This document shows, one piece after another, positions 1,209-18,427 of a stretch of DNA of 64,000 nucleotides (position 1 is the stretch's first letter; each line of letters begins with the position of its first letter). The DNA is taken from assembly GCA_963720545.1 (NCBI GenBank), contig OY970399.1, positions 2,880,001-2,944,000 on the forward strand, written 5' to 3'. Made by a program: the position numbers and the translations under genes. The notes under the pieces are model-generated. The model did no database searches, had not been told where the DNA came from, and saw only the letters and a list, made by a program, of their open reading frames with translations. This DNA is from an uncultured Acidobacteriota bacterium. GTDB taxonomy: Bacteria > Acidobacteriota > Vicinamibacteria > Fen-336.

Positions 1209-1270
1209 TGAATCCCCCTTCAGGAGCGGCGCCTCCGAACCATCGAAGACGCCGCGTTTAGGTTGCCCGT

Positions 1271-1987
1271 TTACTTGGCGGCGGGTGCGTTGAACTTGAA
1301 GGCGACCGACTTGGTGTCGCTGGCGCCGACGGTCACCGACGACTTCTGCACGCCGAGCCGCTCGTGCCACGCCTCGACCTCGTAGGTGCCGGCAGGCAGG
1401 TTGGCGATCGAGAACTTGCCGTCGGCGCCGGTGACCGCGAAGTACGGATGGCTGAACACCGCCATGTACGACTTCATCCACGGGTGGACGTCGCACTTGA
1501 TCTCGAACACGCCCTCTTCCTTGCCGAAGGTCTCGGTCGCTTCCTTGCGGCTCGGCGGCATCGCCATGTTGGTCGGCTTGTTCACCTTGGGCAGCGTGTG
1601 GACGTTGTGCAGCACGCCGTCGGTGTTGATGATCTTGAACGGCTGGTTGACCATGATGCCCATGACGTGCGGCTTGTACTGGCAGCCCACCTGGTCCATC
1701 TCCACCGGCTTGGTCGGCGCGGGATAGCTCTTGCCGGCAGGCAGGCCGGAGGAGATGCGCACCAGCACGTTCGCCATGCTGTTGCCGGTGCCGAGCACCA
1801 GCATCTCGTTGGGGATCGTCGGGTGCTTGGCGGCGCACATCGGCTCGGCGGCCACGGCGATCGGCTTGAGGGCCGGAACCTTGCCCTCATAAACCACGGT
1901 GCCCGCGACTGTGCCGGCCCAGGCGGTGCCGCACAACATGGCCACGCCCGCGCCGAAGGCCAGGGTCCTTCCAGAATGATTTCGCAT
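1271..1987 (-). CDS. Secreted cupredoxin-like / carboxypeptidase-regulatory-like domain protein
   Basis: Signal peptide; GCQYKPHV, HNVH and CDVHPWM (type-1-copper-like Cys/His/Met set); C-terminal TGADGKFSIANLPAGTYEVEAWHE beta-sandwich. Confidence 0.8.
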   Translation of the reverse strand: MRNHSGRTLAFGAGVAMLCGTAWAGTVAGTVVYEGKVPALKPIAVAAEPMCAAKHPTIPNEMLVLGTGNSMANVLVRISSGLPAGKSYPAPTKPVEMDQVGCQYKPHVMGIMVNQPFKIINTDGVLHNVHTLPKVNKPTNMAMPPSRKEATETFGKEEGVFEIKCDVHPWMKSYMAVFSHPYFAVTGADGKFSIANLPAGTYEVEAWHERLGVQKSSVTVGASDTKSVAFKFNAPAAK

Positions 1988-2071
1988 CGCGTCTTCTCTC
2001 CCTTGAGCCGGAATGGCCGGCTATTTGATTGATGATCGTACCGCTGCCAATCGCCTGCTGTCGCGCCCCGA

Positions 2072-3280
2072 TCAGAAGTTCTCGAACGCGAGCGATTCGC
2101 CGAGCCGGGGATCGCCCACCGGCACGACCGGATGGCTCTGCAGCAGCCAGCCGAACGCAGCCATGAACAAGGCGCCCACCGTAACGAATGCGGCCACGTC
2201 GAGGAGGCCGAAGTGTGGCCCGTGTTCGTTGAAATTGGGGGCCACCACCCAATAGATGTCGAGGAGGTGCATGGCCAGCATCCACACCGCCCCGAGCAGC
2301 AGGGTGGCCGGCTTGCGCTTCAGCCCGCGCATCAGCAGGTAGGGGAAGGGGATGCCGAAATGGCCGATGGCGAGCGCCATCGACAGCGGCCGCCAGCCGC
2401 CCTCGAGCCGGTGCTTGAACCAGATGGTCTCCTCCGGGATGTTGCCGTACCAGATGAGGAAGTACTGCGAGAAGCCGATGTAGGCCCAGAAGACAGTGAA
2501 GGCGAGGAGCAGCTTGCCGAGGTCCTGGAAGTGCTCGGGGGTGAAGATGCCGCGCACCCCGGCATGATGCAAACCGAGCACCACCACCGTCATGAATGCG
2601 AAGGCCGCGACCAGGCTGCCGGCGAACGAGTACACGCCGAAGATGGTGGAGAACCAGTGCGGGTCGAGCGACATCAGCCAGTCGACCGAGGCGAAGTGGT
2701 GGGTGATCGCGAGCGGAATGAGGGCGGCGGCGCTGTAGCGGCGTAGCTGCGCGGAAAGCAGCGGATCGTGCGAGGCGTCCTGCGCGTAGGAGGCGCGCGC
2801 GAACCACCAGGCGAGCCCCGACCACACCAGGAAGTAAACCGCGGCGCGCACGTAAAAGAAGCTGGTGTTGAGGTAGGCCGCTTTCGTCTGGATCAACGGG
2901 TCGCTGGCCGCGGCCGGCAGCGTCCACGGGAACAGTTCGTTCATGCCCAGGGCGACGGGCAGGAACAGCAGCGCGAACAGCGGCAGCGTGGCCGCGCCGT
3001 TCTCGGCCACACGGCGCACCACGATGCCCCAGCCGCCCTGGAAGGAGGTGTGGATGAGCACGAAGTAGAGGCAGCCGAGGGCGATGGTGAGGAAGTAGAT
3101 GAAGGCCACGAGCCACGCCGCGTAGAACTCCTGGGCGTGTCCGCGCGCCAGGATGGCGCAGGACAGCGCGCCGACGACGCCCACGGCGACGCCGATCATC
3201 CGCAGCCTTGCCCAGATGCTCTGCGCAGGCAGCGTGGCCTGCGCGATGCTCACCGAGGCGGCAGCGGCGTGTGCGGTCAT
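2072..3280 (-). CDS. actF: Alternative complex III membrane subunit ActF
   Basis: About 10 TM helices, [38 protein letters not shown] overlaps the upstream stop (ATGA). Confidence 0.88.
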
Positions 3281-3800
3281 GCGCTCACCCATTCAAGGCC
3301 CGCGACCCCGGCCTTGCGCAGCAGGTCGGGTGTCGCCGACTCGCTGAAGCGCGGGTCGGTGCTGTCGATCGAGATGAAGAAGCGGTCGTCGGTGGCCCGC
3401 TCGAAGCGCGTCGAGTCGAACAGCGGATGGTTGTGCAGCGGCAGCCGGTTCATGTGGAACATGCCGAGCACCGCGCCCAGGGCGCCGCCCAGCACCGACA
3501 GCTCGAAGGTGACCGGGATGAACGCCTGCCACGAAGCAGCGGCTTGCCGCTGATGACGAGCGGGTAGGCCATGGTGTGGACCCACACCTGCAGGGCGAAG
3601 CCGCCGGCCGCGCCGAGAAGCGCCAGGACCAGCACGAACAGCGGCAGCCGGCGAACGCTTCAGGCCCATCGCCTTGTCGAGCCCGTGCACCGGGAACGGC
3701 GTGTGCGCGTCCCAGTTGGTGAAGCCGGCGTCGCGCACGCGACTCGCAGCGCGTGGTAGAGCGCAGCCGGCGTCTTGAACTCGGCGAGCAGCACCCGGCT
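3277..3800 (-). CDS. actD: ActD (DUF3341) domain of alternative complex III; apparently the C-terminal part of an ActC-ActD fusion, with several single-base frameshifts
   Basis: [52 protein letters not shown] and [13 protein letters not shown] are spread over three frames. Confidence 0.8.
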
Positions 3801-5248
3801 GTCGCCTTCGGCCTTCGCCGGAGCGGGCGCCAGGATGGCCGGAGCCTGGGGCTCGATGTCCGGCGCCGGTTCGGCGTGCGGATCGGCCTGCGGCAGCACC
3901 GACTTCACCTCGGCCGCGGCCACCATCGGCAGGAAGCGCACGAACAGGCAGAACAGCGTGAAGAACAGGCCGAAGCTGCCGATGAAGGTGCGCGAAGTCC
4001 CAGATGGTCGGGTGGAAGTAGCCCCAGGTCGACGGCAGGAAGTCGCGGTGCAGCGAGGTCACGATGATGACGAAGCGCTCGAACCACATGCCGATGTTGA
4101 CGAAGATCGAGAGCGATGAACAGCGCGACCAGGCTGCGTGCGCACCTTCTTGAACCAGAAGAGCTGCGGGAAGAAGACGTTGCAGCTGATCATGGTCCAG
4201 TAGGCCCAGGCGTACGGGCCGAAGGCGCGGTTGATGAACGCGAAGAGCTCGTAGGGGTTGCCGCTGTACCAGGCGATGAAGAACTCCATGCCGTAGGCGT
4301 AGCCGACCATCAGCCCGGTCACCAGCATGATCTTCGCCATGTAGTCGAGGTGGCGCATGGTGATGATCTGCTCGAGCCCGAACGCCCAGCGGCAGATCAC
4401 CATCAGCGTCACCACCATCGCGAAGCCGGAGAAGATGGCGCCGGCGACGAAGTAGGGCGGGAAGATCGTCGTGTGCCAGCCGGGCAGCTGCGAGACGGCG
4501 AAGTCCATCGAGACGATCGAGTGCACCGAGAGCACCAGCGGCGTCGCGAGGCCGGCGAGGATCAGGTAGGCCATCTCGTAGTGCTGCCAGTGCCGCTGCG
4601 AGCCGCGCCAGCCGAGCGACGAAGAAGCCGTAGGCGCAGCTTGCGGATCTGCGTCTTGGCGCGGTCGCGCATCGTCGCGAGGTCGGGGATCAGGCCGACG
4701 TACCAGAAGAGCGCCGAGACCGTGCCGTAGGTGCTGACCGCGAACACGTCCCAGAGCAGCGGGCTGCGGAAGTTCGGCCACGTGCCCATCTGGTTCGGGA
4801 GCGGGAACATCCAGTACGCCACCCAGACGCGGCCGACGTGGATGCCGGGGAAGATCAGCGCGCACATGACCGCGAAGATCGTCATCGCCTCGGCGGCGCG
4901 GTTGATCGAGGTGCGCCACTTCTGGCGGAACAGGAAGAGGATGGCCGAGATCAGCGTGCCGGCGTGGCCGATGCCGACCCAGAACACGAAGTTGGTGATG
5001 TCCCAGGCCCAGCCGACCGGCACGTTGAGGCCCCAGATGCCGATGCCTTCCCAGAAGAGCCACGGCACGCCGATGGCGAGCCCCTGCAGCATGACGAGCG
5101 CGATGCCGAAGACCACCCACCAGCCGCGCGGTGTCTTGCGCTCCATCACCCCGGAAACGATCTCGGTGACGGAATGGAAGTCGTGGCCGCCGAGGATCAG
5201 CGGGGCGCGGCCGGAAACCGGGTTGGCTGGGTCGACCTGCGCGTTCAA
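3801..5248 (-). CDS. actC: ActC (NrfD/PsrC family) quinol-binding subunit of alternative complex III; frameshifted in this assembly
   Basis: TTG start after [79 protein letters not shown] and [18 protein letters not shown] lie in successive frames. Confidence 0.9.
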
Positions 5249-5391
5249 TCGTCCTCCAGCCCGCGCTCTCGGGGAGCCACAGGCCGCGTTGCTGCTACTT
5301 GGGTGCCTTGAGATACCAAATTAGAGACGACAAAGCAACCGACCCGCGACGACGAATCAGCGCATCGAAACGCGACGTTACCCGAATTGAG

Positions 5392-5730: not shown

Positions 5731-5785
5731 TCATTCTCGCCCAGTCCTTGTCACCCCGTGCCGTCGCGTTCAGAATGCCGGGGTG

Positions 5786-6655
5786 GTGAAGATCCGCACC
5801 TATAACGAGGTGAGCGGCGGCGACTCGTCCGGCATCCTGGCGCAGGTGGTGGCGCAGCGCGACCGGGTGAGCGAGCGCCTGGCCTCGGTCCGCCACGTGG
5901 TCGCGGTGATGAGCGGCAAGGGCGGGGTGGGCAAGAGCCTGGCGACCGCGGGTCTCGCGCGGGTGCTCGCGCGCAAGCCCTGGCGCGTCGGCGTCCTCGA
6001 TGCGGACCTGCACGGCCCGACCACGGCACGCATGCTGGGCGCCGTGCCCGGCAGCCTTGCCGTCCGCGACGGCGCCGTCGCGCCGGCTGCGGGCGCCGAT
6101 GGCATCCGCGTCATGTCGAGCGAACTGCTGCTCGACGAAGCGGCGCCTCTGCGCTGGAAGGAGCCGGGCGCCGACGGGTTCGTCTGGCGCGGCACCCTCG
6201 AGACCGGCATGCTGCGCGAGTTCCTCGCCGACGTCTCCTGGGGCGAACTCGACGTGCTGCTCCTCGACCTGCCGCCTGGCACCGAACGCCTCGAGGCGCT
6301 TGCGGCGCTGGTGCCGGCGCTGCGCGGCGTCGTGGTCGTCACCATCCCGACGGACGAGTCGTACCAGTCGGTGCGGCGCTCGGTGGCGGTTGCGCAGAAG
6401 GCAGGCATTCCCATCCTCGGGCTCATCGAGAACATGTCCACCTACCGCTGCGCGCATTGCCACGCCGCCGGGGCGCTCTTCGCCGGCGATGCCGCCGAGC
6501 GGCTGGCACGAGAATCGGGCGCGCCCATCCTCGACCGCGTCCCGTTCGACCCGCGCCTGCAACTCACCGCAGCCGGCTTGCCCGACAGCGTTCACGACGC
6601 GTTCGCGCCGGCCGCGGCGGCGCTCGCGGCGCGGCTGGAAGCGGCGGCCCGTTGA
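5786..6655 (+). CDS. Mrp/NBP35 (ApbC-like) P-loop ATPase, putative Fe-S cluster carrier
   Basis: SGKGGVGKS deviant Walker A, DADLHGP, WRG, DLPPGT, GLIENMS, CAHC; GTG start (5783 or 5786). Confidence 0.88.
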   Translation: MKIRTYNEVSGGDSSGILAQVVAQRDRVSERLASVRHVVAVMSGKGGVGKSLATAGLARVLARKPWRVGVLDADLHGPTTARMLGAVPGSLAVRDGAVAPAAGADGIRVMSSELLLDEAAPLRWKEPGADGFVWRGTLETGMLREFLADVSWGELDVLLLDLPPGTERLEALAALVPALRGVVVVTIPTDESYQSVRRSVAVAQKAGIPILGLIENMSTYRCAHCHAAGALFAGDAAERLARESGAPILDRVPFDPRLQLTAAGLPDSVHDAFAPAAAALAARLEAAAR

Positions 6656-7092
6656 AGTTCCTGTGCATCGCCTGCGATTCGGTGATGGCGTTCGCCGAAC
6701 GGCAGCTGCCGGGCGACGGCACGCTGGCCGCGATGTTCACGTGCCCGAAGTGCGACCGCTCTGTCGCGATGCTGACGAACCCGATGGAGACGCAGCTCGT
6801 CTCGTCGCTCGGCATCCAGATCGGCGGCAAGTCGGTTCCTGACCAGCCGTTCGAGCTGACGCGCACCGCGGTGGACGGCGGCCGCAGCGACGCCTTCGCC
6901 GACGCGCCGGTGCCCTCGGGCAGCGTCGTCTGGGAAGCCGAAGCCAAAGCGCGCCTCGAGCGCGTGCCGACTTTCGTTCGCGGCATGGTGCTGCGCATCT
7001 ACAACGACTACGCCAAGGAACGCGGTATTCGCTCGATGACCACCGAAGTCATGGACACGGCGCGCCGCGAGCTCGGCCTCGAGGGCATGTAG
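6652..7092 (+). CDS. Small protein: N-terminal CxxC...CxxC metal-binding ribbon plus C-terminal PCP_red (BchB C-terminal-like) domain
   Basis: TTG overlaps the Mrp stop; CIAC and CPKC; WEAEAKARLERVPTFVRGMV...YAKERG. Confidence 0.8.
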   Translation: MKFLCIACDSVMAFAERQLPGDGTLAAMFTCPKCDRSVAMLTNPMETQLVSSLGIQIGGKSVPDQPFELTRTAVDGGRSDAFADAPVPSGSVVWEAEAKARLERVPTFVRGMVLRIYNDYAKERGIRSMTTEVMDTARRELGLEGM

Positions 7093-7094
7093 CC

Positions 7095-7340
7095 GTGGCC
7101 TTCGACGAGCGCGACGCGGCTGGCCTGCGGCTGCGCATCGACCGCGACCTGTGCGTCGGCTTCGGCGACTGCATCACCGAAGCGCCCGACGGCTTCGTGC
7201 TCGACGACGATGGCATCGCCGTGTACACGAAGCCGGAGACGTGCACTCGTGAGCAACTGCTCGCGGCCTGCGAAGCCTGCCCCGTAGACGCGATCACGGC
7301 TTTCGGCGCAGACGGCGAGGTGTTGGCGCCGAAGCGCTGA
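7095..7340 (+). CDS. Single-cluster ferredoxin (probably [3Fe-4S])
   Basis: IDRDLCVGFGDC...APDGFVLDDDG...ACEACPVDAI. Confidence 0.88.
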   Translation: MAFDERDAAGLRLRIDRDLCVGFGDCITEAPDGFVLDDDGIAVYTKPETCTREQLLAACEACPVDAITAFGADGEVLAPKR

Positions 7341-7344
7341 ACTG

Positions 7345-7422
7345 GACGTTGAGTCCGCACAGCTCAAGAGTGACTCGTTCCGTTCCGGAACGAGTTGGAG
7401 TTGAGTCGTCGACGCGCAGGAA
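7345..7422. repeat. Palindromic direct repeat, copy 1 (78 bp)
   Basis: gacgttgagtccgcacagctcaagagtgactcgttcc-gttcc-ggaacgagttggagttgagtcgtcgacgcgcaggaa; matches 9736-9808 except for a 5-bp insertion and 3 substitutions. Confidence 0.95.
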
Positions 7423-7425
7423 TGC

Positions 7426-8808
7426 ATGGATCAAGAGAGCAGAGTCGTCAACGACGTCCATTCGCGGATGAATGAGACGCAGGTTCGCGAGATCGTGCAG
7501 CCGCAGTCCGCCGCCGATGTGCGCACCAGTGTTCGAAGAGCGGCGACGCAGGGTATCGCGGTGGCGACCAGCGGTGCGCGCCATGCGATGGGTGGGCAGC
7601 AGTTCCGCACGAGCGGGCTGCTGCTCGACATGCGCCTGATGAACCGGGTCGTGCATCTCGACGGTGGCGCCGGCCTTCTGCGAATCGAGGCCGGCGCTTC
7701 TTGGCCCGACATTGTCCAAGCCACGGCGCGTTCTCCATGGAGCATCCGCCAAAAACAAACGGGCGCCGATGCGCTGACGCTCGGTGGCTCCATCGCCTGC
7801 AATGCGCACGGCCGTGGGCTGGTGATGGGGCCGCTAGTTGATGACATCGAATGCTTGACGCTGTGCGATGCCCGTGGCGAACTCATCACTTGTTCGCGGC
7901 AGGCGAATGCGGAGCTCTTCTCCCTTGTGGTAGGCGGCTACGGCCTGTTTGGCGTTGTCATCGACGCGACTCTGCGACTCACACGTCGAATGGCATTGCG
8001 CCGACTGGTGGACATCATCGACATCGATGATGCCGTTGCCGCGGTCGCCCGCCGCGTCGCGGAGGGTTGTCTCTACGGCGACTTTCAGTACGCCATCGAC
8101 GCGACGGACGACTCTTTCCTGCGGCGCGGCGTGATGGCCTGCTACAGACCGGTTGCCGACGATATGCCGGCGACGGACGGGAGTTCGGATCTCTCGCGGG
8201 AGGATTGGCTGAAGTTGCTAACCCTCGCGCATACCGACAAGCGCCGGGCATTCCAGGCTTATTCCGAGCACTACCTGGCCACCCACGGCCAAATTTACGC
8301 CTCTGACACGATGCAGCTTGGCACCTACATTCCCTCGTACGCGGAGTTCCTTGCCGAAGCTCTCGGCCACACGGTGCCGGAGAGCCTGATGATCACCGAG
8401 CTGTACGTCCCGCCCCAACGAATCGTCGCATTCATGGCCGCGGCTCGCGCCGTGTTGCGCTCGACCGGCGTCGAGGACATCTACGGCACGATCCGTTCGA
8501 TCCGAAAGGACAACACCACATTCCTCCCCTGGGCTCGTGCGGATTTCGCTTGTGTGATCTTCAACCTGCGCACGCCCGCCACCGTCGCCGGCCGCGCACG
8601 AACGGCCGACGCGGCGCGCGGTCTCATCGACGCGGCCGCAGCTCTCGGTGGTTCCTTCTATCTCACCTACCATCGGTGGGCGACGCGCGACCAGGTCCTC
8701 CTCTGTCACCCCCGGTTACCAGCGATGCTTGCTTTGAAGCGGCAGTACGACCCGACACTCGTCTTCCAGAGCGACTGGTACGCACATCATGTCGCCTTGC
8801 TGCAATGA
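7426..8808 (+). CDS. FAD-binding oxidoreductase (VAO/PCMH fold, FAD_binding_4)
   Basis: SGARHAMGGQQF, TLGGSIACNAHG, GGYGLFGVV, C-terminal GGSFYLTYH...KRQYDP..FQS. Confidence 0.85.
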   Translation: MDQESRVVNDVHSRMNETQVREIVQPQSAADVRTSVRRAATQGIAVATSGARHAMGGQQFRTSGLLLDMRLMNRVVHLDGGAGLLRIEAGASWPDIVQATARSPWSIRQKQTGADALTLGGSIACNAHGRGLVMGPLVDDIECLTLCDARGELITCSRQANAELFSLVVGGYGLFGVVIDATLRLTRRMALRRLVDIIDIDDAVAAVARRVAEGCLYGDFQYAIDATDDSFLRRGVMACYRPVADDMPATDGSSDLSREDWLKLLTLAHTDKRRAFQAYSEHYLATHGQIYASDTMQLGTYIPSYAEFLAEALGHTVPESLMITELYVPPQRIVAFMAAARAVLRSTGVEDIYGTIRSIRKDNTTFLPWARADFACVIFNLRTPATVAGRARTADAARGLIDAAAALGGSFYLTYHRWATRDQVLLCHPRLPAMLALKRQYDPTLVFQSDWYAHHVALLQ

Positions 8809-9701
8809 AGACGGCGAGCCCCAGCGCCACCGCGCGCCTTATCGCCGCGGCCACGGTGTTGTCGGCTTCCGATCCGTCGACCGCCAGCCTCATTCCGCCG
8901 GCCGCCGCTTCGTGGTGCGCCAGCTTCCTGTCCTTTGTGATCGCCGATCGCCTGCTGCTGGCTTCGGTACGCACGGCACCGGGTCGGGCCGGTTGGCGCC
9001 TCGTTGAGCGCATGACGCTGCCCGGCATGATTCGGCATTACGCGCTGCGCAAGGCGTACATCGAGACAGTATGGCGTCAGGCCAAGGGGGACGGATACCG
9101 CCAGCTCCTGGTGCTTGGAGCCGGCCTCGACACGCTGGGTTTGCGGGTTGCGGCTGCGGATTCGATGGTCCGCGTCGTAGAGCTCGACCATCCCGCCACG
9201 CAGTCGATCAAGAGACGGGCTCTGCTTGAACGCGCCCCTCACAACTTTCATATGGTCGAAGGTCGCTTGGACCGCGCAGGCTGGTCACCGGCGATACGCG
9301 AGGCGGGCGCGCTGGATCCGGCACTCGCGACCCTCGTGTTGCTCGAGGGTGTCTCCATGTACCTCAATGAAGCGGCTGTGATAGCACTGCTGGGCGAGGT
9401 TGGACGGTTGCCTGCGCCGCGGCTGCGGCTGGTCATGACACTGTTCGACCGCAGCGAAAAGCGCCGCATCGGCTTCCGGCCAACGAGCCGTCTCGTCACC
9501 GGTTGGTTGCGCGTGGTCGGCGAGCCATTCTTCTGGGGCTGCGAGGACGACCGTGTCGGGTCGTTCCTTCGATCCTGTGGATTCGGACTGATTCGTCTCG
9601 CCAAACCCCGCGACTTCACACCGGAGGCTCGCGCAACCGCGACGAGTGCCGTTCTCGAAGGTGAGGGCGTTGCGGTGGCAGATCATGTGACAAGCGGCTG
9701 A
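8805..9701 (+). CDS. Class I SAM-dependent methyltransferase (LCM/leucine carboxyl methyltransferase-like family)
   Basis: ATGA overlap with the oxidoreductase; QLLVLGAGLDT, ELDHPATQSIKR, LLEGVSMYL. Confidence 0.85.
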   Translation: MKTASPSATARLIAAATVLSASDPSTASLIPPAAASWCASFLSFVIADRLLLASVRTAPGRAGWRLVERMTLPGMIRHYALRKAYIETVWRQAKGDGYRQLLVLGAGLDTLGLRVAAADSMVRVVELDHPATQSIKRRALLERAPHNFHMVEGRLDRAGWSPAIREAGALDPALATLVLLEGVSMYLNEAAVIALLGEVGRLPAPRLRLVMTLFDRSEKRRIGFRPTSRLVTGWLRVVGEPFFWGCEDDRVGSFLRSCGFGLIRLAKPRDFTPEARATATSAVLEGEGVAVADHVTSG

Positions 9702-9735
9702 GGTTCGCCAACGTGTACCGAGTGTGCCAAGCGAC

Positions 9736-9808
9736 GACGTTGAGTCCGCACAGCTCAAGAGTGACTCGTTCCGGAACGGGTTGGAGTCGAGTCGTCGACG
9801 CGCAAGAA
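9736..9808. repeat. Palindromic direct repeat, copy 2 (73 bp)
   Basis: gacgttgagtccgcacagctcaagagtgactcgttccggaacgggttggagtcgagtcgtcgacgcgcaagaa. Confidence 0.95.
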
Positions 9809-9872
9809 CCGAACGATTTGTCCTGGGCTCAGCGGCGTCCAGCGGCGGTCCAGCCGTAGACAGCTACCGCTG

Positions 9873-11879
9873 TCACCGGCTTCCGCTCGCCTTGGCGATG
9901 AGGGCGAGCGACGCCGGCTGCGTCGCGTAAGCGGTCTTGTAGGTCGCGGCCTTGGCGGCGGGCAGGCGATAGCCCGCGGCGATCAGCTCTTCGAGGCCGT
10001 CGTGGCCGCTCCACAGTCCCATCTCGAAGGCGGTCAGGCCCATCGCGTTCGCGGCCTTCACGTCGCCGCCCGAGCGGATCAGCAGGCGCATCACCGTGCG
10101 GTCGCAGCCCGCGATCGCGGCGTCCATCAGCGGGGTGTTGCCGTTCTTGTCCTTGTGCGCGGCGCTTGCGCCCTTCTCGACCAGCGCCTGCACGATCGCG
10201 AGCGTCGCGGCTTTCGTCGGCCGCTCGGTCGGCGCGCATGCCTGGTTGACGAGCGCCATCTTGAGCGGCGGATCGTCGCCGGTGCCCTCGAAGCCGCGGT
10301 TCACCGGGATGCCGGCGTCCACGAACGCCTTCACCAGTTCCGCGTCGCCCTGGCCGATGGCGCGGTAGAAGTTCCAGTCGTCGAAGGCGACGCCGCGTTC
10401 ACGCAGCAGCGCGAGCGCGGCACGTTCGCCTGCGGGCGCCGCCTGGGAGGCGGCTGCTGCCGTCGCCGCCACCGGCGCGCCGCCTGGCGTGGCGCGCCGG
10501 CCGCTCTTCACGCGCTCCGCGGCTTCCTGCGCCGCCGCACGGACACGTGGCTCGGGATCACGCGCCAGCGCTTCGATCGCCGGCAGGGCCGACCTGGCCT
10601 CCGCCTCGCGGTTGCGCAGGTGCGAGAGCGCGCGCAGCCGCACCTCGAGCGCGTTGCCGGAGCCTGCGATCGTCGCGAGGTCGCCGGCCGACCCCTCTTC
10701 ACCAAGCGCCAGGCCGTTCAGCGCATCGAGGGCCTCGAGCCGCGTGTCCACTTCGGCATCGCCGGCGATGGCCTTCAGGAGCGGCGCGTGGGCGCGTTGC
10801 GCGACCGCCTGCTTCGCCGCCACGGGCACCGCCGCCGTGCGGTCGCCCATCTTGACGAGTGCGCGCGCGGCGCTGCGCCTCACGTACTTGTCGGGATCGC
10901 CGCCGAGCGCGTCAACGACGGCGCCCACTTGTTCGGCGGCCAGGCCGCCCGCTGCGCCGAGCGCATCGAGCGCCGCCGATCGCACGTCGTCGTCGGGACT
11001 CTTCACAAACCGCGCCGCGGGGGATGCCCACGCCGCGACGTCCTTCTCGGTGTGCTGTCCGGCGAGTTCCTTGAGCGCCGCTTCCTGCACGTCCACGTTG
11101 GCGGAGCCGAGCAGCTCGACCAGCGTCGCGGTCCAGCCGGTCGGCTTCGGCTCGAAGCTGCCAAGCGCCTTGATGATGAGGGGCGTGCCCGGCTGGCCGG
11201 AACGGGCCGCCTTCGTGAGCGGCGCGACCAGGCCGCGGTCGCGGGTGGCAGCCAGCTCCTGCAGCGCGTTCGTTGCGAGCTCGCTGTTGGTGCGCTGCGC
11301 GTCGTAGTTCGGATCGCTCACCGGCACCGCCGTCGACCATTCGGCCGTGTACGCGAGCACCGGGCCGAGGAGCCGCGTCGGTTCGTCGATGCCGATGAGG
11401 CCGCTCGCCGCGAGAAAGCGCGTGTCAGTGGCGCTTGCCGGCCCATCCAGGACCCGCCGCCGCGTGGCGGCCAGATCTTTTGCCGGCACACCCAGCGCCT
11501 GGAGAGCGCCGGCGGCGCGCACGGCGACGTCCCCGCTGACGTCATCGAGCGCCTTCGTCAACGCGGCGCGCGCCGGCTCCGCGGCCTTGTGCGAGCGCCA
11601 CAGGGACCGCGCCGCTGCCACCCGCACGCGCGGCGCCGGATCGGCGAGCGCCGCGGTCAGCGCGCTGATGGCCGCGGGGTACTCCGAGCCGCCGAGATAC
11701 TCCGCGGCATCCTCGCGCTTTTGCGGATCCTTTTCGGCCTGGAGCGCCTTGATCTTTTCGTCCACCCACTTGCGAGCCTGCCGGTCGCTCTTCTCGTCGA
11801 CGCCTGGCGGTGCTGCGGCATGCGCCGGCAAGGCGGTTGCGAGGAACGACAAGGCGAGGCAGCGAAGCAGCAGGCGCAT
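9873..11879 (-). CDS. Secreted HEAT-repeat protein with C-terminal ankyrin repeats
   Basis: Signal peptide MRLLLRCLALSFLATALPAHA after GGAGG; repeated D-P-x-x-x-VR-x-AA helices; DKNGNTPLMDAA and NAMGLTAFE ankyrin motifs. Confidence 0.82.
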   Translation of the reverse strand: MRLLLRCLALSFLATALPAHAAAPPGVDEKSDRQARKWVDEKIKALQAEKDPQKREDAAEYLGGSEYPAAISALTAALADPAPRVRVAAARSLWRSHKAAEPARAALTKALDDVSGDVAVRAAGALQALGVPAKDLAATRRRVLDGPASATDTRFLAASGLIGIDEPTRLLGPVLAYTAEWSTAVPVSDPNYDAQRTNSELATNALQELAATRDRGLVAPLTKAARSGQPGTPLIIKALGSFEPKPTGWTATLVELLGSANVDVQEAALKELAGQHTEKDVAAWASPAARFVKSPDDDVRSAALDALGAAGGLAAEQVGAVVDALGGDPDKYVRRSAARALVKMGDRTAAVPVAAKQAVAQRAHAPLLKAIAGDAEVDTRLEALDALNGLALGEEGSAGDLATIAGSGNALEVRLRALSHLRNREAEARSALPAIEALARDPEPRVRAAAQEAAERVKSGRRATPGGAPVAATAAAASQAAPAGERAALALLRERGVAFDDWNFYRAIGQGDAELVKAFVDAGIPVNRGFEGTGDDPPLKMALVNQACAPTERPTKAATLAIVQALVEKGASAAHKDKNGNTPLMDAAIAGCDRTVMRLLIRSGGDVKAANAMGLTAFEMGLWSGHDGLEELIAAGYRLPAAKAATYKTAYATQPASLALIAKASGSR

Positions 11880-11943
11880 GTTGAAAGCCTCCGGAGTGCC
11901 GATGCTAAGCGAGCGGCCCTTTGCCGCGGCGATAGCGCGCAAA

Positions 11944-11972
11944 TTGCCTCGCGTGTAAGCGTTTGCGATACT
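11944..11972 (+). promoter_or_regulatory. Candidate sigma70-type promoter for the 11999-16715 operon
   Basis: TTGCCT-17 nt-GATACT, 26 nt upstream of the ATG at 11999. Confidence 0.35.
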
Positions 11973-11998
11973 GCCACTTCGTTCGATCCGGGGGTGAC

Positions 11999-12715
11999 AT
12001 GACTGACGTTGAAACGGTGCCTGAGGCGCCACAGGTAAAGGTCGAAAGCGGCGTCGCCAGGGTCCTGGTGGACGGCAAGGAACGCGAGTTCCAGTTGAAG
12101 CCGCTGCCCGAGGAGTTCACCAAGTGGCAGCTCGAGTACAAGCACCGGATCTACGATTCGATCCTCAAGGACGAGTACGTGCGCTTCAACGCCGGCCACC
12201 TGCCGGTGGTCGGCTCGTGGGACGAGGAGTCTCTGTTCCCGAACCTCGCCAACAAGGGCGTCGGCTTCACGCCGAAGGACGAGTACATCGAGAAGTACCT
12301 GAAGCTCGTCGAGGACGCGGTCGCCGAGATCGAGAAGCTGCCGACGCACGCGGTGGACGAGACCCGCAAGATGCGCATCGCGACGGCGCGCGAGTTCTAC
12401 GCGCATCCCGAGCACATCGACTGGAGCCGCCTGGGGCTGCTCGAGATCTTCGAGGGCGGCACCTACCGCAACTTCGTCAAGAACCCGTTCGCCTCGGTGC
12501 TCTGGACCGGCGACTCGCCGGTGTTCGTGAGCTACCAGGTCGACTGCATCGTCGAGGTGATCACGCCGGAGCACCCGCGCTACCGCTTCTCCTGGGCGAT
12601 GCGGCGGCTCTTCGAGTTCGAGCCGTTCCACATCGTGCAGACCATGTTCCCGTACGCGTACACGCTGTGGGTCTACGACTACAAGGACAAGACCCCGCGC
12701 CGCCGCTTCAAGTGA
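11999..12715 (+). CDS. Putative pyridoxamine 5'-phosphate oxidase-like (FMN/heme-binding split-barrel) protein
   Basis: Strong GC3 codon bias; TYRNFVKNPFASVLW...SYQVDCIVEVI resembles the split-barrel N..NP..S pattern. Confidence 0.55.
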   Translation: MTDVETVPEAPQVKVESGVARVLVDGKEREFQLKPLPEEFTKWQLEYKHRIYDSILKDEYVRFNAGHLPVVGSWDEESLFPNLANKGVGFTPKDEYIEKYLKLVEDAVAEIEKLPTHAVDETRKMRIATAREFYAHPEHIDWSRLGLLEIFEGGTYRNFVKNPFASVLWTGDSPVFVSYQVDCIVEVITPEHPRYRFSWAMRRLFEFEPFHIVQTMFPYAYTLWVYDYKDKTPRRRFK

Positions 12716-12731
12716 GCGCCGCCGCACATCG

Positions 12732-13352
12732 ATGATCCAGCACAAGCGTGTCGACCGCGGCCAGCTCGCCGCGTTCCTGAAGGACGTCGCGGGCCGGCTC
12801 ACCCGGCCGGTGCATCTTTATCTCATCGGCGAGAGCGCCCTGGTGCTGGCGGGCGCTCGCGAGGCGACCGAGGAGAAGTTCGTCTACACGGCGAGCCCCT
12901 CGGACCGCGCGGCGCTCGACAAGGCCGTGGCCACGAGTGCGTCCGGCATCGGCATCGAGGTGCAGGCCGAGTCTCCGGCCGAGGTCGTGCCGACGCCAGA
13001 CGGCGCCGAGTCGCGCGCGCGGCCGATTGCCGAATGGCAGGCAGGGCCGCTCAAGGTCAGCGTCTACGATCCCTACGGCGCCGCCATCCGCCTGGTGGCG
13101 CGCGGCGACGAGCCCGATTATCACGCGGTCGTCGGCTACATGCGCCTCGGCTGGATGACGATGGAAGAGCTCGACCGCATTGTCGAGACGCTGATCGCGC
13201 GCTTCACCAAGGAAACGATCGCGCAGGATCCGGAGGAGTTCCGCCGCAAGCTGAAGGGCCTGCGGCAGATGTGGCGCGCCGACGTCTCGCGCCGCGCCGG
13301 CCAGCCCGTTTGGCAAGAGACCCCCCGCGGAGATACGCTCACGAACACGTAG
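12732..13352 (+). CDS. DUF6036-like nucleotidyltransferase-fold protein (degenerate)
   Basis: LTRPVHLYLIGESALVLAG...YDPYGAAIRLVARGDEPDY pattern; the canonical D-x-D appears to be missing. Confidence 0.5.
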   Translation: MIQHKRVDRGQLAAFLKDVAGRLTRPVHLYLIGESALVLAGAREATEEKFVYTASPSDRAALDKAVATSASGIGIEVQAESPAEVVPTPDGAESRARPIAEWQAGPLKVSVYDPYGAAIRLVARGDEPDYHAVVGYMRLGWMTMEELDRIVETLIARFTKETIAQDPEEFRRKLKGLRQMWRADVSRRAGQPVWQETPRGDTLTNT

Positions 13353-13398
13353 CTGCACCTGCCGCAGTCGGCCGTTTCTCGTCCACGAGGTCCGCGGA

Positions 13399-15390
13399 AT
13401 GTACAAGGAAGTGTTCGTCCCGGTCGACAACTCGCAGCACTCGGACTGGGCGGTGGAGCGCGCGATCGAGATGTGCCAGGCGACCGGCGGGCGCATCACC
13501 GCGAACCACGTGTATGCGGCGCGCCTGCACGACGTGCGCTTCCGCCAGCTCGAAACCGGGCTGCCGGCGCAGTTCCAGACGCCCGAAGAGATCAAGCGCC
13601 AGCGCAAGATCCACGACAAGCTGATCGAGAAGGGCCTGCAGCTGATCGCCGACAGCTTCCTCGACCAGGTCGGCAACCGCGCCGAGGCCGCCGGCGTGCC
13701 GCTGACGCGCCAGCTGCTCGAGGGCATCAACTACGAAGAGATCGTGCGCGAGCTGAACCGCGGTGAGGGCCGCCTGCCGGGCCTCATCGGCTTCGACCCC
13801 AATCGCGCCAAGGGCTACGACGGCGCCGACAAGATCCGCGGCGACGTGCAGCTCGGAGCCGACGGACGCATCGTCGCCGAGGACGAGGGCGAGGCGGCGA
13901 AGCTCGCCGGCAACTCCGGCCGCCAGTACGACCTCATGGTGATCGGCGCGCACGGCCTCGGCCGCCAGCAGTATTCGCAGGTGGGCGGCGTCGTCTCGCG
14001 TGCGCTGCGCTCGATCGAGAAGGACACGCTCATCGTCAAGGACGGCACGCCGCTGCGCGGCGGCAAGATCATGGTGTGCGTCGACGGCTCGTCCTACTCG
14101 TACCGCGGCATGAAGGCGGCGCTCGAGCTGGCGCAGCAGTTCGGCGCCGAGCTCTACGTCTGCAGCGCCTTCGACGTCGAGTATCACCACATCGTGTTCC
14201 ATAACATCAAGGACGTGCTCTCGGCCCAGGCCTCGAAGGTGTTCAAGTTCGAGGAGCAGGAAGAGCTGCACAACAACATCATCGACAAGGGCCTGCTGAA
14301 GCTGTGCCAGGCGAACATCAAGCGCGCCGAGGCGATGGCCAAGGAGTATCCCGGCGTGCCGATGAAGTCGCAGATCCTCATCGGCAAGCCGTTCCAGGTG
14401 ATCCTGCAGTGGGCCGAGGAGATCAAGCCCTCGATGGTGATCGCGGCGCGGCACGGCGCCCATCGCGTCGACGGCACCGACCTCGGCTCGCAGGCCGAGA
14501 ACCTGATTCGCCTCTCGCCCGCGAACCTGATGCTGATCGGCACCACCGGCATCCGCCCCGAGGACATTCCGTGGATCGAGGAGGACGGCCAGGCCGGGCT
14601 GCCGTGGGCGCCCGACGCCGAGGTGCGCATCCTGCGCGTGCCGCCGTTCGCGCAGGGCATCGCGCGGCGCGCGGTCGAGGAGTACATCCTCGAGAACAAC
14701 GGCGGCGAGCTGAACCCGATCGTGACCAACAAGTGGCTCGACCAGGCGATCGCCAAGCTGCTGCCGACGCACATGCAGCTCATCATGGGCATCGGCAGCG
14801 CCGAGGAGATCGCACTCGCCGAGACCAAGGCCGAGGAGCAGCTGCGCGCCACCAAGGTGGTGGGCTACGACGACGACCCGGAGCCGGAATCTTCGGACGT
14901 CGAGACGAAGTGCCCGATCACCGGCCAGGTCGGCAAGCGCCCGCGCATGGCCACCGACCCGATCGTCTGGACCAACGAGGCCTGGGACCGGCTGCGCGGC
15001 GTGCCGCTGATCGCGCGGCCGCTGGCGCGCAACACCGTCGAGCGCTTCTCGCGCAACCACGGCATCTGGCGCGTCACCACCCGCGTGATGGACGAGAACA
15101 AGGCGGCCATGATCGAGGCCGACGAGTTCGACGCCGAGACCATGATGACGATGTTCACCGAGCTGCGCGCCCGCCAGATCCGCGCCGAGGCGGAAGGCGG
15201 CAGCGCCATCTCCGAGGAGATGCGTCAGTTCATCGAGGAGGCGAAGGCGAACGGCGTCACCCGCTGCCCGATCCGCGACATCGAAGTGCAGATGGACAAG
15301 TGCCCGGTGGACATGAAGACGGTCTCGCCGGCGGACGCGAAGAAGGCGGTCGAGCAGTACCTGGAGACCGTGGGCGCGAAGAAGGAGTAG
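13399..15390 (+). CDS. Tandem universal stress protein (two USP domains) with two C-terminal PCP_red-like domains
   Basis: VFVPVDNSQHS...YDLMVIGAHGLG...GGV; IMVCVDGSSYS...ARHG...LGSQAENL; then WAPDAEVRILRVPPFAQG and WTNEAWDRLRGVPLIARP. Confidence 0.88.
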   Translation: MYKEVFVPVDNSQHSDWAVERAIEMCQATGGRITANHVYAARLHDVRFRQLETGLPAQFQTPEEIKRQRKIHDKLIEKGLQLIADSFLDQVGNRAEAAGVPLTRQLLEGINYEEIVRELNRGEGRLPGLIGFDPNRAKGYDGADKIRGDVQLGADGRIVAEDEGEAAKLAGNSGRQYDLMVIGAHGLGRQQYSQVGGVVSRALRSIEKDTLIVKDGTPLRGGKIMVCVDGSSYSYRGMKAALELAQQFGAELYVCSAFDVEYHHIVFHNIKDVLSAQASKVFKFEEQEELHNNIIDKGLLKLCQANIKRAEAMAKEYPGVPMKSQILIGKPFQVILQWAEEIKPSMVIAARHGAHRVDGTDLGSQAENLIRLSPANLMLIGTTGIRPEDIPWIEEDGQAGLPWAPDAEVRILRVPPFAQGIARRAVEEYILENNGGELNPIVTNKWLDQAIAKLLPTHMQLIMGIGSAEEIALAETKAEEQLRATKVVGYDDDPEPESSDVETKCPITGQVGKRPRMATDPIVWTNEAWDRLRGVPLIARPLARNTVERFSRNHGIWRVTTRVMDENKAAMIEADEFDAETMMTMFTELRARQIRAEAEGGSAISEEMRQFIEEAKANGVTRCPIRDIEVQMDKCPVDMKTVSPADAKKAVEQYLETVGAKKE

Positions 15391-16715
15391 TGGCCGCGAC
15401 CGCCGTCAGTTCCTTCGTTGCGGGCGAGCGCGAACCGGCTTCGAGCGAGTTCCTGCCGCACGTCGTCGCCTGGAACCTGACGAAGAAGTGCAACCTCCAG
15501 TGCACGCACTGCTACATCTCGGCGGGGCCGTGGGAGGACGCGAGCGACGAGCTGACGCCAGCGGAGTGCCTGCGGGTGGTGGACCAGCTGGTCGAGGTGA
15601 ACCCGTCGCCGATGCTGATCCTGAGCGGCGGCGAGCCGCTGCTGCGGCCCGACCTGCCGGCGCTCGCGGCGCACGCGGTGCGGCGCGGCTGCACGGTGGT
15701 GGTCGGGACCAATGGCACGCTGCTCACGGCGGCCAAGGTGGGGATGCTGAAGGACGCCGGAGTCTCGGGTGTCGCGGTCAGCGTGGATTCGCTCGAGCCC
15801 GGCGCCCACGACGCCTTCCGCGGCGGCTCGCATGCGCTGCAGCGCACCATGGCGGCGCTCGAACATCTGAAGGCGCAGCAGCTCGACTTCGTCATCCAGA
15901 CGACCGCGAGCCCGGCCAACCAGGACCAGATCCCGCAGATCGTGCGCTGGGCCGCCGAACAGGGTGCCGTCTGCTTCAACCTTTACTTCCTGGTGCCCAC
16001 CGGCCGCGGCGCCGACCTCGTCGACCTTGCGCCCGCACGCATCGAGTCGTTGCTTTCCGACCTCGCCGCGGCGGAGCAGGAGCAGCGCGGCGCGATGATG
16101 GTGCGCGCCAAGTGCGCGCCGCACTTCATCCGCCACGTCCACGGCACCGATCCCGACTCGCCGGTGCTCAGCTATCGCACGCGCTGTCCCTGCGGCATCG
16201 ACTACTGCCGCATCACCCCCGACGGCAAGCTGACGCCGTGCCCGTACATGCCAAGTGTCGCCGGCGACCTGCGCCGGCAGACCTTCGGCGAGATCTGGCG
16301 CGAGTCGCAGCTCCTCGCCTCGCTGCGCGAACGCTCCCTGGGCGGCCGCTGCGGCCGCTGCGAGTACCGCCTCATCTGCGGCGGCTGCCGCGCGCGGGCG
16401 CTGGCAGCCACCGGCGACGTGCTGGCCGAAGACCCGTCGTGCACCTACGAGCCGCAGCCCGACCGAGCGCCGATCCCGCGGCGCGCCATGACGTACGGCG
16501 GCGCGCACACGGCCACCCTCACGTGGCACCCGGCGGCGCAGGAGCGCATGAACAAGATCCCGTCGTTCGTGCGCGGCGTGGTGATGAAGCGCGTCGAAGA
16601 CTTCGCCCGCGAAAAAGGCGCCGCGACCGTGACCATCGACCTGCTGAAGGACATCCGCTCCGCCATGCCGGTCGACTTCTCGAAGAAGCGCCCGTTCTTC
16701 CTCAAGGACGAATGA
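15390..16715 (+). CDS. Radical SAM/SPASM protein (NirJ/AhbC-D-like) with C-terminal PCP_red-like domain
   Basis: WNLTKKCNLQCTHCY (CxxxCxxC), SGGEPLLRPDL, SPASM CPCG...TPCPY...CGRCEYRLICGGCRARA...EDPSC, tail WHPAAQERMNKIPSFVRG; GTG start overlaps the USP stop. Confidence 0.92.
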   Translation: MAATAVSSFVAGEREPASSEFLPHVVAWNLTKKCNLQCTHCYISAGPWEDASDELTPAECLRVVDQLVEVNPSPMLILSGGEPLLRPDLPALAAHAVRRGCTVVVGTNGTLLTAAKVGMLKDAGVSGVAVSVDSLEPGAHDAFRGGSHALQRTMAALEHLKAQQLDFVIQTTASPANQDQIPQIVRWAAEQGAVCFNLYFLVPTGRGADLVDLAPARIESLLSDLAAAEQEQRGAMMVRAKCAPHFIRHVHGTDPDSPVLSYRTRCPCGIDYCRITPDGKLTPCPYMPSVAGDLRRQTFGEIWRESQLLASLRERSLGGRCGRCEYRLICGGCRARALAATGDVLAEDPSCTYEPQPDRAPIPRRAMTYGGAHTATLTWHPAAQERMNKIPSFVRGVVMKRVEDFAREKGAATVTIDLLKDIRSAMPVDFSKKRPFFLKDE

Positions 16716-18369
16716 CGGCTGGCGCCTTCCTGAACCGGAGGTCCAGGACCCGGCCGGTGTTGATGGTGAGGCCGTTGATGGCGCCGCGCTTGTCACGGTC
16801 GAAGCGCACCGTGCCGAACTCGGCGTTCAGGAACAAGTCTCGGCCGAGCGGCACCAGCGCCTCGCCAGCGGGCAGCTTCATGGTGGTCACCACCAGCGCG
16901 CCGCTGCGCGCCTCGACCCGGTAAACCGGTTCGAGCTCGTCGCTCGTGTAAGCGCCTGCGTACTGCGCAAGGTCCGCGGCTTGCGGCACGAACTGCGCGA
17001 CCCGCTCGTAGACGACCGGGTCTTCGTCCTCGAACGTCTGCGTGAAGCGTGCGGCGTTGGCGGCAAAGGTGAAGACCGGGCCGCTGTCGCCGAGGCGGAA
17101 GCGGCTCTTCCCGAGCGGCTGCAGCGCGCGGATGCGCTCGTCGGTCGAGGAGCTGATGCCGAGCTTTCCTTCGCGCACCAGCACCCGCGCGCCGTCGCGG
17201 CCGTCGGCGCTGACGAAGGCGCCGGTGAGTTTCTGCAGGTCGGTCGCGGCCACCTCGACCTCCTTCTCGGGAACAGGCTCCGGCTGCAGCTGCGCGGCGA
17301 GGTAGATGTCGGCGACCTTGTGGCTCAGGGTCCAGGGCTGGGCGTGCGCGGCGTTGCAGAGGATGGTGACGGCGAAGCGCTGGTCGGGGAACCAGCTGAT
17401 GTTGGCGCGATAGCCGGCGTCGGCGCCGCCGTGGCCCACGGTCCGCAGTCCGCGGTACGTGCCCACCGAAAGGCCGAACGCGTAGTCGGTCTTCTTGCCG
17501 CTCGTCAGCACGCCCGGCACCTGCAGGCTGTCGAGGAACTCCCGGTCGAGGACCTTGCCGGTCCAGAAGTTCTGTGCCCACTTCACGAGGTCGCCGGCCG
17601 TCGTCATCAGGCTGGTGGCGCCGACGGTGTCGAAGTTGGTGACGCTCAGCCGGTACGTGCTGCCGGCGCGTTCGTAGCCGTAGGCGATCTCCGGCACCAG
17701 TTCGGCATGGTCGTCGCGGAAGTGGGTGCGGTTCATGCCGAGCGGCCTGAAGAACCGTTCGGTCGTGAACTCGCGCAGCGACTTGCCGGAGACACGCTTC
17801 ACGATCTGGCTCAGAAGCGTGAAGCCGGTGTTCGAGTAGAGGTACTTCGAACCGGGCGGGAAGTTGAGCGCCTTCTGCCGCTTCACCAGGCTCATGACGT
17901 CGTCGTCGGTGATGAGGTCGAGGGAATAGCGCCAGCCGGAAAGGCCGAGCAGGTCCCACTGGTCGCGCAGCCCGCTCTGGTGATGGATCAACTGGCGGAT
18001 CGTCACCGGCGTGCCGAAGTCGGGCAGTTCGGTCACGTACTTGCGCGCCGGGTCATCGAGCGAGAGCTTGCCTTCCTTCGCCAGCAGCGCCACCGCCGCG
18101 GCCGTGAACTCCTTGGAGACGGAAGCCACGTGGAACACGGTGGCCGCGGTGTTGGCGATGCCGTGGTCGAGGTCGGCCATGCCGTAGCCGCGCGTGTAGG
18201 CGACGGCGTCGTCCTGCAGCACGGCGAGCGAACAGCCCGGCGCATCCGAGCGGTTCCACTCCGCGAAAACCGCGTCCACGCGCTCTGGGTTCGTTTGCGC
18301 GAGGAGCCGCTCCGCAGCCGCCAGGGAAAGCGCCGCGAGTGCCGCCGCGCCGAAGCCGATCGATTTCAT
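16702..18369 (-). CDS. Serine hydrolase, beta-lactamase/class C-like family, secreted
   Basis: FHVASVSK (SxxK), YLYSNTG (YxN), VGHGG; signal peptide; start placed at MKSIG after GGAGG. Confidence 0.9.
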   Translation of the reverse strand: MKSIGFGAAALAALSLAAAERLLAQTNPERVDAVFAEWNRSDAPGCSLAVLQDDAVAYTRGYGMADLDHGIANTAATVFHVASVSKEFTAAAVALLAKEGKLSLDDPARKYVTELPDFGTPVTIRQLIHHQSGLRDQWDLLGLSGWRYSLDLITDDDVMSLVKRQKALNFPPGSKYLYSNTGFTLLSQIVKRVSGKSLREFTTERFFRPLGMNRTHFRDDHAELVPEIAYGYERAGSTYRLSVTNFDTVGATSLMTTAGDLVKWAQNFWTGKVLDREFLDSLQVPGVLTSGKKTDYAFGLSVGTYRGLRTVGHGGADAGYRANISWFPDQRFAVTILCNAAHAQPWTLSHKVADIYLAAQLQPEPVPEKEVEVAATDLQKLTGAFVSADGRDGARVLVREGKLGISSSTDERIRALQPLGKSRFRLGDSGPVFTFAANAARFTQTFEDEDPVVYERVAQFVPQAADLAQYAGAYTSDELEPVYRVEARSGALVVTTMKLPAGEALVPLGRDLFLNAEFGTVRFDRDKRGAINGLTINTGRVLDLRFRKAPAVIRP

Positions 18370-18427
18370 GGACGAACCTCCAGGGCGGATCGTACCGGGA
18401 GACGGCGCTCGCCGTAATATTGCCGCG

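Follow-up and report, generated by a model that had tools for sequence, protein, structure and literature searches.

In a 64,000-nucleotide stretch of an Acidobacteriota genome (hereafter the window; contig OY970399.1, positions 2,880,001 to 2,944,000), a group of genes at 5786..16715 encodes three proteins that share the small PCP_red domain, together with a Mrp-type ATPase and a ferredoxin. We propose that these genes probably form a dedicated cofactor-maturation module for OR-N cytochrome bd-like oxidases; that the module serves such an oxidase in some way is highly probable. The main components are as follows.

5786..6655, plus strand: Mrp/ApbC-like P-loop ATPase, a divergent dedicated paralog (PF10609, 1e-60)
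6652..7092, plus strand: zinc-ribbon (CxxC-x22-CxxC) and PCP_red protein, termed the CxxC protein, a predicted Mrp adaptor (PF08369, residues 94-138)
7095..7340, plus strand: single-cluster ferredoxin (Fer4_13, 1.6e-10)
13399..15390, plus strand: tandem universal stress protein (USP) with two PCP_red domains (Pfam; tandem-USP fold)
15390..16715, plus strand: radical SAM/SPASM protein with PCP_red (rSAM-PCP), AhbD/NirJ2-like (NirJ2 286.9 bits, AhbD 285.8 bits)

The sole CydA-family match in the genome (C1:2865794) lies outside the window, 19 kb upstream of the Mrp gene, in a cluster (G000:C1:2861314-2870421) where ActA-like, ActB-like and cytochrome c genes precede the CydA-like gene (620 aa), which is followed by genes for two c-type cytochromes and then for a diheme c-EB_dh protein. 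PF01654 matched the CydA-like protein over profile positions 2-240 only, the protein contains at least 12 hydrophobic segments, and its conserved residues H97, H258 and M547 are presumably the equivalents of H19, H186 and M393 in E. coli. With a CydA N-terminal core that retains the heme ligands, many extra helices and c-type cytochromes encoded 3', the gene fits on sequence grounds the OR-N family of bd-like oxidases, as far as the available text of bioRxiv 10.1101/2021.01.16.426971 describes it. The likeness extends to the length of the protein (about 620 aa), to the lack of any CydB seen, and to the two c-type cytochromes followed by a diheme c-EB_dh protein. A comparable bd-like/alt_NxrC cluster is described for Nitrospira (bd-like_3/alt_NxrC_2, PMC6606698) and Nitrospina (PMC3578206) in the accessible portions of these papers. 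From its size and single-gene context we infer a placement in the N1/N2 subfamilies. In the subset of loci that was aligned, the additional residues E401, M405, H410 and H559 were conserved in 24 of 24 sequences of this single-subunit type and in none of 24 divergent sequences. Residue 552 (numbered on L006:5039-6898), at a position which we take to be that of the heme ligand E445 of canonical CydA, is Ser in the single-subunit CydA-like proteins and Glu in many paired-type subunits.

The distribution of the module was examined in loci from GTDB genomes (the best 80 of 572, 75 titled Gemmatimonadota) and in three genome samples: an even sample of 251 genomes from the same phylum as the window, searched at E<=1e-30 for the USP and E<=1e-25 for the CydA-like protein, 151 genomes of Gemmatimonadota, and 201 of Chloroflexota. 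Among the best 80 loci, the rSAM gene was present in 72, the CxxC gene in 68, the Mrp gene in 67, and the ferredoxin and CydA-like genes in 63 each; for the 42 of these loci that were at least 18 kb long the corresponding numbers were 42, 42, 42, 40 and 40. The usual gene order was Mrp-CxxC-ferredoxin-USP-rSAM-CydA-like-three cytochromes-cox. Within the phylum of the window, the USP was found in 18 of 251 genomes and the CydA-like protein in the same 18; in 16 of the 17 genomes other than our own, a single contig carries both. All 17 also contained an rSAM ortholog, 12 within the locus and 5 elsewhere, and PF08369 was found in 21 of the 251 genomes, these being the same 18 plus 3. The USP was present in 41 of 151 Gemmatimonadota and a strong CydA-like match in 42, with all 41 in common; the contig of the 42nd begins inside the rSAM gene. 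Another 18 Gemmatimonadota had weak N-terminal CydA matches only, and none of these had the USP. In Chloroflexota the USP was found in 17 of 201 genomes, with a CydA-like gene within approximately 11 kb in 14 of them (11 as divergent pairs); of the remaining three, two had the CydA-like gene on another contig and in one it was not found. No rSAM, Mrp or CxxC gene was found in the 14 Chloroflexota loci examined. These patterns indicate that the USP accompanies every oxidase type seen, the rSAM-Mrp-CxxC submodule being associated with the single-subunit one. The USP is a core partner of OR-N oxidases, and the co-occurrence of module genes across phyla that the initial annotation of this DNA had called for is borne out by the genome samples.

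Sequence comparison places rSAM-PCP in an unnamed, AhbD/NirJ2-like subfamily of radical SAM/SPASM proteins. Its best families over the whole length were NirJ2 (TIGR04055; 286.9 bits) and AhbD (TIGR04545; 285.8 bits), each with a cut-off of 500, and NirJ scored 188.7 against a cut-off of 515, so none was passed. Relatives of rSAM-PCP scored 300-313 bits against AhbD, and all 66 of the aligned rSAMs matched both NirJ2 and AhbD at E<=1e-60. The motif CX3CX2C (C34/38/41) and the auxiliary-cluster motif CX2CX5CX2CX17C (C321/324/330/333/351), both shared with AhbD and NirJ2, were invariant. The auxiliary motif is of the AhbD type according to the part of PMC10114771 that was available, but AhbC and NirJ have motifs much like it, so it is not specific to AhbD. 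rSAM-PCP differs from AhbD and NirJ2 in its low score (about 286 bits against 500), in its C-terminal PCP_red domain, and in being tied to an oxidase rather than to a hem operon. AhbD-like matches without PCP_red in G475 and G570 were considered as orthologs and rejected on the basis of their location after hemD-hemB. In the genome of the window (94.8% complete), hemE-hemN-hemY and hemH are located elsewhere, with HemN scoring 571 against a cut-off of 325, and ChdC, HemF and AhbA/B (PF17805) were not found; neither AhbA/B nor a hem operon was thus seen as the context of rSAM-PCP. The complete and separate heme b pathway indicates that rSAM-PCP is not required for bulk heme b. Dedicated cofactor maturation is the role of nirJ for cytochrome cd1, a radical SAM tetrapyrrole-type enzyme serving one respiratory enzyme, and of the heme chaperone HemW (available part of PMC10114771); the module differs from these cassettes in using a tandem USP rich in His, a separate Mrp with a zinc-ribbon adaptor, and PCP_red repeats.

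The USP contains two Pfam Usp domains, and its predicted structure (pLDDT, the predicted local distance difference test, 74) was matched by Foldseek to the tandem-USP fold of Rv2623 and TTHA0350. The ATP-binding loop of these proteins has the motif G-2x-G-9x-G, which is shared by Rv2623, TTHA0350 and UspE. Both loops are kept in the module USP, with G183/G186/G196 and G353/G363 invariant in an alignment of 183 sequences, and six His residues (37, 44, 72, 263, 291 and 355) are present in every non-gapped row of the same alignment. Four of these His residues form two pairs, H44/H72 and H263/H291, and each pair lies on the helical insert of one domain. These inserts, the PCP_red tail and an identity of 70-80% across a phylum distinguish the module USP from Rv2623, TTHA0350 and UspE. 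Distant members of the family have up to six PCP_red copies as well as rubredoxin-like knuckles, and named homologs were found in Ca. Manganitrophus, Nitrospinota, SAR324, Mariprofundaceae, Nitrospirota and Thermoanaerobaculia. A short USP-PCP_red gene (L169:5993-7027, in G186) and a 112-aa PCP_red reading frame (L168:4986-5324, in G118) occur in two genomes that have no CydA-like match at E<=1e-25.

The Mrp protein matched PF10609 at 205.7 bits (cut-off 27.1) and has the deviant Walker A motif and bridging CxxC of the Mrp/NBP35 iron-sulfur carriers. It shares GKGGVGKS, the ENM motif and the C-terminal CxxC with Mrp, ApbC and NBP35, the CxxC being kept in about 94% of homologs. It differs from them in scoring below the ApbC and MrpORP equivalog cut-offs, in having its own N-terminal segment, in being the second such gene of a genome that also has a housekeeping-type ApbC (G000:C1:2957421, apart from the module), and in having a fixed partner gene: the CxxC gene lies directly 3' of the Mrp gene in 79 of 82 loci. 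The four Cys residues of the CxxC protein are 94-100% conserved. The Fer4_13 match confirms the ferredoxin that had been annotated initially, as PF10609 does the Mrp/ApbC ATPase. The ferredoxin is a lineage-specific part, present in 63 of the 80 GTDB loci and not found in the 17 loci from the phylum of the window. Modules from that phylum have a conserved GNAT acetyltransferase gene between the USP and Mrp genes, at the place taken by the ferredoxin gene in the lineage of the window (L118:12785-13633, L119:7880-8722 and others).

We modelled the complex of two Mrp chains with the CxxC protein, ATP and a 4Fe-4S cluster by use of ESMFold2, with three controls. The complex scored 0.79, compared to 0.00 for the best control. 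The mark used was reached by 116 of 157 solved pairs and by 2 of 215 mismatched ones; these figures apply only roughly to a case such as this one. Contact agreement between runs was at least 93% and the pLDDT of the partner at least 84. In the modelled interface, residues 1-85 of the CxxC protein contact Mrp at positions 3-24, 89-98 and 114-149, and from the PCP_red domain (94-138) just residues 111-112 take part. The predicted binding of Mrp therefore involves the zinc ribbon and linker of the CxxC protein, which would be a Mrp adaptor whose PCP_red domain is left free.

The initial annotation had described four copies of one small domain on three proteins and likened it to the PCP_red domain of BchB/ChlB. 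All four motifs are present at the positions given there, and the three proteins all passed the PF08369 gathering cut-off of 32.5 bits: the CxxC protein with 44.8 bits (residues 94-138, E 1.3e-11), the USP with 61.3 bits over two stretches (E 9.1e-17), and the tail of rSAM-PCP with 51.7 bits (residues 379-422, E 8.9e-14). Taken singly, three of the four copies passed, copy 1 of the USP scoring 28.6 bits. The motif, written as a regular expression, had exactly four matches in the six frames of the 4.09-Mb genome, all in the window, and a PF08369 search of the whole genome likewise found four copies, all in the module. The CxxC-family and rSAM-family profiles aligned with each other over 55 columns (E 3.5e-18) and matched the BchB/ChlB chains 2xdq, 2ynm and 2kru as well as the stand-alone protein Asr4154 (2l09), so that the likeness to BchB/ChlB was confirmed directly on solved structures. 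The domain shares with these proteins (2kru, 2l09) the Pfam family and the pattern W...RL..VP.FVRG. Full-length BchB/ChlB of dark-operative protochlorophyllide oxidoreductase (DPOR) was not found, the match to TIGR01278 covering just the C-terminal 70 or so positions at 31-44 bits against a cut-off of 490; unlike DPOR, the module lacks the DPOR catalytic domain and distributes one to six PCP_red copies across several proteins of a respiratory module. The initial annotation takes the PCP_red domain of BchB/ChlB to contact BchL; salt bridges between BchB and BchL are named in PMC12022308, in the accessible part of which no mention of the C-terminal region was found. Stand-alone proteins of about four PCP_red repeats are encoded beside the module in some metagenome loci (L185:14193-15194 and L228:17078-18037).

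Putative relatives of the module are also found in nitrite oxidizers. In Nitrospira moscoviensis (supplement Table 1 of PMC6606698) the genes for UbiE, an rSAM, a "modular" UspA (2106 bp), another rSAM (1383 bp) and a DUF4149 protein (510 bp) follow one another in the same order as, and with sizes near, those of locus L223. By synteny and size, NITMOv2_0498/0497/0496 are candidate counterparts of the module genes. In Nitrospira-like loci (L197:7370-9832 and L223:7320-9838), as in N. moscoviensis, the USP gene is preceded by the methyltransferase gene ubiE and by a gene for a B12-binding radical SAM protein. The mrp gene of that organism (NITMOv2_2065) was rejected as the module Mrp; it adjoins lipA and a Rieske-type ferredoxin instead. 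Transcription of the N. moscoviensis module genes was 9.3x (USP), 3.3x and 1.4x the median (PMC6606698). The proposal that the module is stress-regulated finds no support here, as the syntenic USP, at 9.3x the median, had no significant change over three time points of steady growth, in a data set without stress conditions. A uspA gene (kustd1706) is listed by name in the Kuenenia nitrite oxidoreductase (NXR)/cydA-like cluster in a table of PMC6423088.

The following assembly route would account for these features. Mrp and its zinc-ribbon adaptor would load iron-sulfur clusters into rSAM-PCP, which the ferredoxin would reduce; rSAM-PCP would modify a heme destined for the single-subunit oxidase type, and carriage or insertion of the heme or metal center would fall to the tandem, His-rich USP. 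PCP_red may provide a common helical contact by which adaptor, USP and rSAM-PCP are joined. It is possible, though doubtful, that three predictions hold jointly: that OR-N oxidases carry a new modified heme made by this rSAM subfamily, that the ATP-binding USP with its six His residues inserts it, and that PCP_red is a general assembly-line contact rather than one specific to photosynthesis. The metallocofactor maturation proposed in the initial annotation remains the best reading; its Mrp-recruiting tag and stress regulation find no support, and the oxidase client had been overlooked.

Several observations weigh against this interpretation. In the genome of the window the module is located 15-26 kb from the oxidase cluster. 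The substrate of rSAM-PCP may not be heme, since the protein falls far below the AhbD cut-off whereas AhbD-like proteins of hem operons score about 466. Of the 17 Chloroflexota genomes with the USP, one yielded an rSAM-PCP ortholog and the other 16 did not. The co-occurrence counts are inflated, and their independence is overstated, by the kinship of the genomes and by the spread of the module in one piece; Fisher tests were left out of the evidence because of that kinship. We also examined a metagenome set, the best 80 of 580 loci found with a Manganitrophus-type USP as lead alignment sequence. Among the 35 of these that were at least 13 kb long, rSAM-PCP was present in 28, a CydA-like gene in 3 and Mrp in 1, indicating that adjacency to the oxidase is not universal. 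A CopD/DUF4149-like gene was present in all 36 metagenome loci that contained rSAM-PCP and enough downstream DNA, a hint at copper.

The last observation bears on an alternative that we consider unlikely, in which the module delivers copper or another metal to the oxidase, or rSAM-PCP cross-links or otherwise modifies the oxidase protein. The six invariant His residues of the USP would suit metal delivery, heme b and copper sites have been proposed for one Nitrospira bd-like oxidase (PMC6606698, in the part available), and the scores of rSAM-PCP below the heme-enzyme cut-offs are compatible with a different substrate. However, no CopD-like match was found in the genome of the window or in the GTDB loci set, and the best families of rSAM-PCP were tetrapyrrole enzymes in 66 of 66 members.

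A second, still less likely alternative is that the USP acts as a nucleotide-, redox- or O2-sensing regulator or protector of the oxidase, the other genes being loosely co-selected. The tandem-USP fold with both ATP loops kept and the rubredoxin-like knuckles of distant members are consistent with sensing, and the UspA proteins of N. marina increase under low O2 (accessible part of PMC8115632), their kinship to the module USP aside. Against this stand the high and steady transcription of the syntenic N. moscoviensis USP and the close coupling of USP with rSAM and of Mrp with CxxC, which together with the common domain call for an enzymatic role. The possibility that rSAM-PCP is a divergent AhbD, providing extra heme b by the oxygen-independent coproheme route while heme-rich complexes are assembled, would be in keeping with AhbD as a co-best family, with the fit of the auxiliary-cluster motif and with the failure to find ChdC in the genome. 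We consider it very unlikely given the complete protoporphyrin route through HemN, HemY and HemH, the failure to find AhbA/B, the score of 286 bits compared to about 466 for AhbD-like proteins of hem operons, and the restriction of rSAM-PCP to one oxidase type. Finally, we consider least likely the idea of PCP_red as a reusable tag through which clients would recruit Mrp or ferredoxin, within an iron-sulfur system under stress regulation: all four copies do accompany a dedicated Mrp, and the structure prediction supports Mrp-CxxC binding, but the modelled interface is formed by CxxC residues 1-85 rather than by PCP_red, leaving docking through the domain unsupported for this pair, and PCP_red arrays also occur in loci without a nearby Mrp or ferredoxin, such as those of Chloroflexota USPs with up to five copies, which have no Mrp nearby.

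The history of the module and that of the oxidase appear to differ in the genome of the window. Median identities to Gemmatimonadota and to same-phylum copies were 73 and 32% for the USP, 57 and 42% for rSAM-PCP, 50 and 39% for Mrp, and 62 and 37% for the CxxC protein, and a quick tree nested the USP with Gemmatimonadota (SH-aLRT branch support 99). The oxidase showed 70-82% identity to 16 of 17 copies from its own phylum, compared to 56-59% for Gemmatimonadota. A Gemmatimonadota-like module beside an oxidase like those of its own phylum suggests that the helper set was replaced, in either direction, and is portable between oxidases.

Each part of the proposed maturation module comes from a known family, and the system as a whole is without a description found in the literature searched, subscription papers being mostly outside the search. 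The available parts of the OR-N oxidase literature (bioRxiv 10.1101/2021.01.16.426971 and PMC6606698) cover the oxidase, and a helper module was not found in them; a term search of the main texts of Murali 2021, PMC9040806, PMC6606698, PMC12342949 and PMC3578206 gave no mention of one, the Murali supplements, which possibly contain operon context, lying outside that search. The OR-N bd-like oxidases are proposed to drive respiration in nitrite oxidizers (Nitrospira) and manganese oxidizers (Manganitrophus), and are treated as uncharacterized in the portions of the sources available. A helper set that is inherited almost perfectly together with the oxidase would guide co-expression for an active OR-N enzyme, and a special cofactor is predicted from it. 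Two roles become testable for the first time, that of a USP in assembly and that of PCP_red beyond photosynthesis, with a cultured model at hand in N. moscoviensis (NITMOv2_0498/0497/0496, by gene order and size).

The remaining genes within and around the span are listed below.

1271..5248, minus strand: respiratory genes, NrfD/ActC-like (NrfD match), ActD/F-like and a periplasmic protein, with CoxI further left
5392-5730, minus strand: single DUF2442 gene, flanked by the respiratory operon and by Mrp
7426..~11880: unrelated insert of a FAD-linked oxidase (plus), LCM methyltransferase (plus) and HEAT/ankyrin protein (minus), from Pfam
11999..12715, plus strand: PNPOx-like split-barrel protein, an occasional accessory (predicted fold, Foldseek)
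12732..13352, plus strand: DUF6036-like (nucleotidyltransferase-like) protein, an occasional accessory paired with the split barrel (Atlas lead, 0.95)
16702-18507, minus strand: serine beta-lactamase-fold hydrolase with DUF3471

The module genes occupy two blocks, Mrp-CxxC-ferredoxin (5786-7340) and split barrel-DUF6036-USP-rSAM (11999-16715), and the span is not a single operon because three insert genes, one on the minus strand, separate them. Insert genes were found in 0 of the 80 related GTDB loci, and GC content at third codon positions was 0.74-0.76 for the two on the plus strand compared to 0.87-0.96. Stop and start codons overlap between Mrp and CxxC (4 nt) and between USP and rSAM. 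A promoter scan gave a single weak sigma-70-like site (5748-5776), which was not relied on.

The split-barrel protein of the initial annotation was corroborated by its predicted fold (pLDDT 86.8), with Foldseek matches to a Listeria PNPOx-like protein, alr5027, HupZ and Rv1155 at E~1e-4; a profile search against PDB sequences gave no significant match. Its ligand may be FMN, F420 or heme. The gene adjoins the USP gene in loci L040, L164 and L251, and in protein P0157 a split barrel is fused to a PCP-bearing USP. For the adjacent protein, previously assigned a nucleotidyltransferase fold, the Atlas similarity of 0.95 to DUF6036 clusters serves as a lead only, and none of the Pfam families scanned scored above cut-off; its gene was found in 1 of the 80 GTDB loci and in L251. 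Both proteins were rejected as core parts of the module, each being present in 1 of 80 loci.

The respiratory genes at the left of the window belong to a 45-kb region (G000:C1:2842796-2885248, comprising L007, L006 and window positions 1-5248) with three pieces resembling alternative complex III (ACIII) and two CoxI genes. ActA/B/E-like genes are found in the CydA-like cluster and ActC/D/F-like genes on the minus strand in the window, and the two sets may complement each other; the ActD/F labels are putative and follow the ACIII gene order. The ActC-like and ActB-like genes are apparently split across frames (window 4059-5248 on the minus strand, L006 954-4411 and L007 ~3900-9750), either by assembly error or by a true frameshift. 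The hydrolase at 16702-18507, for which the family name is all that is assigned, is one of at least 13 paralogs in the genome.

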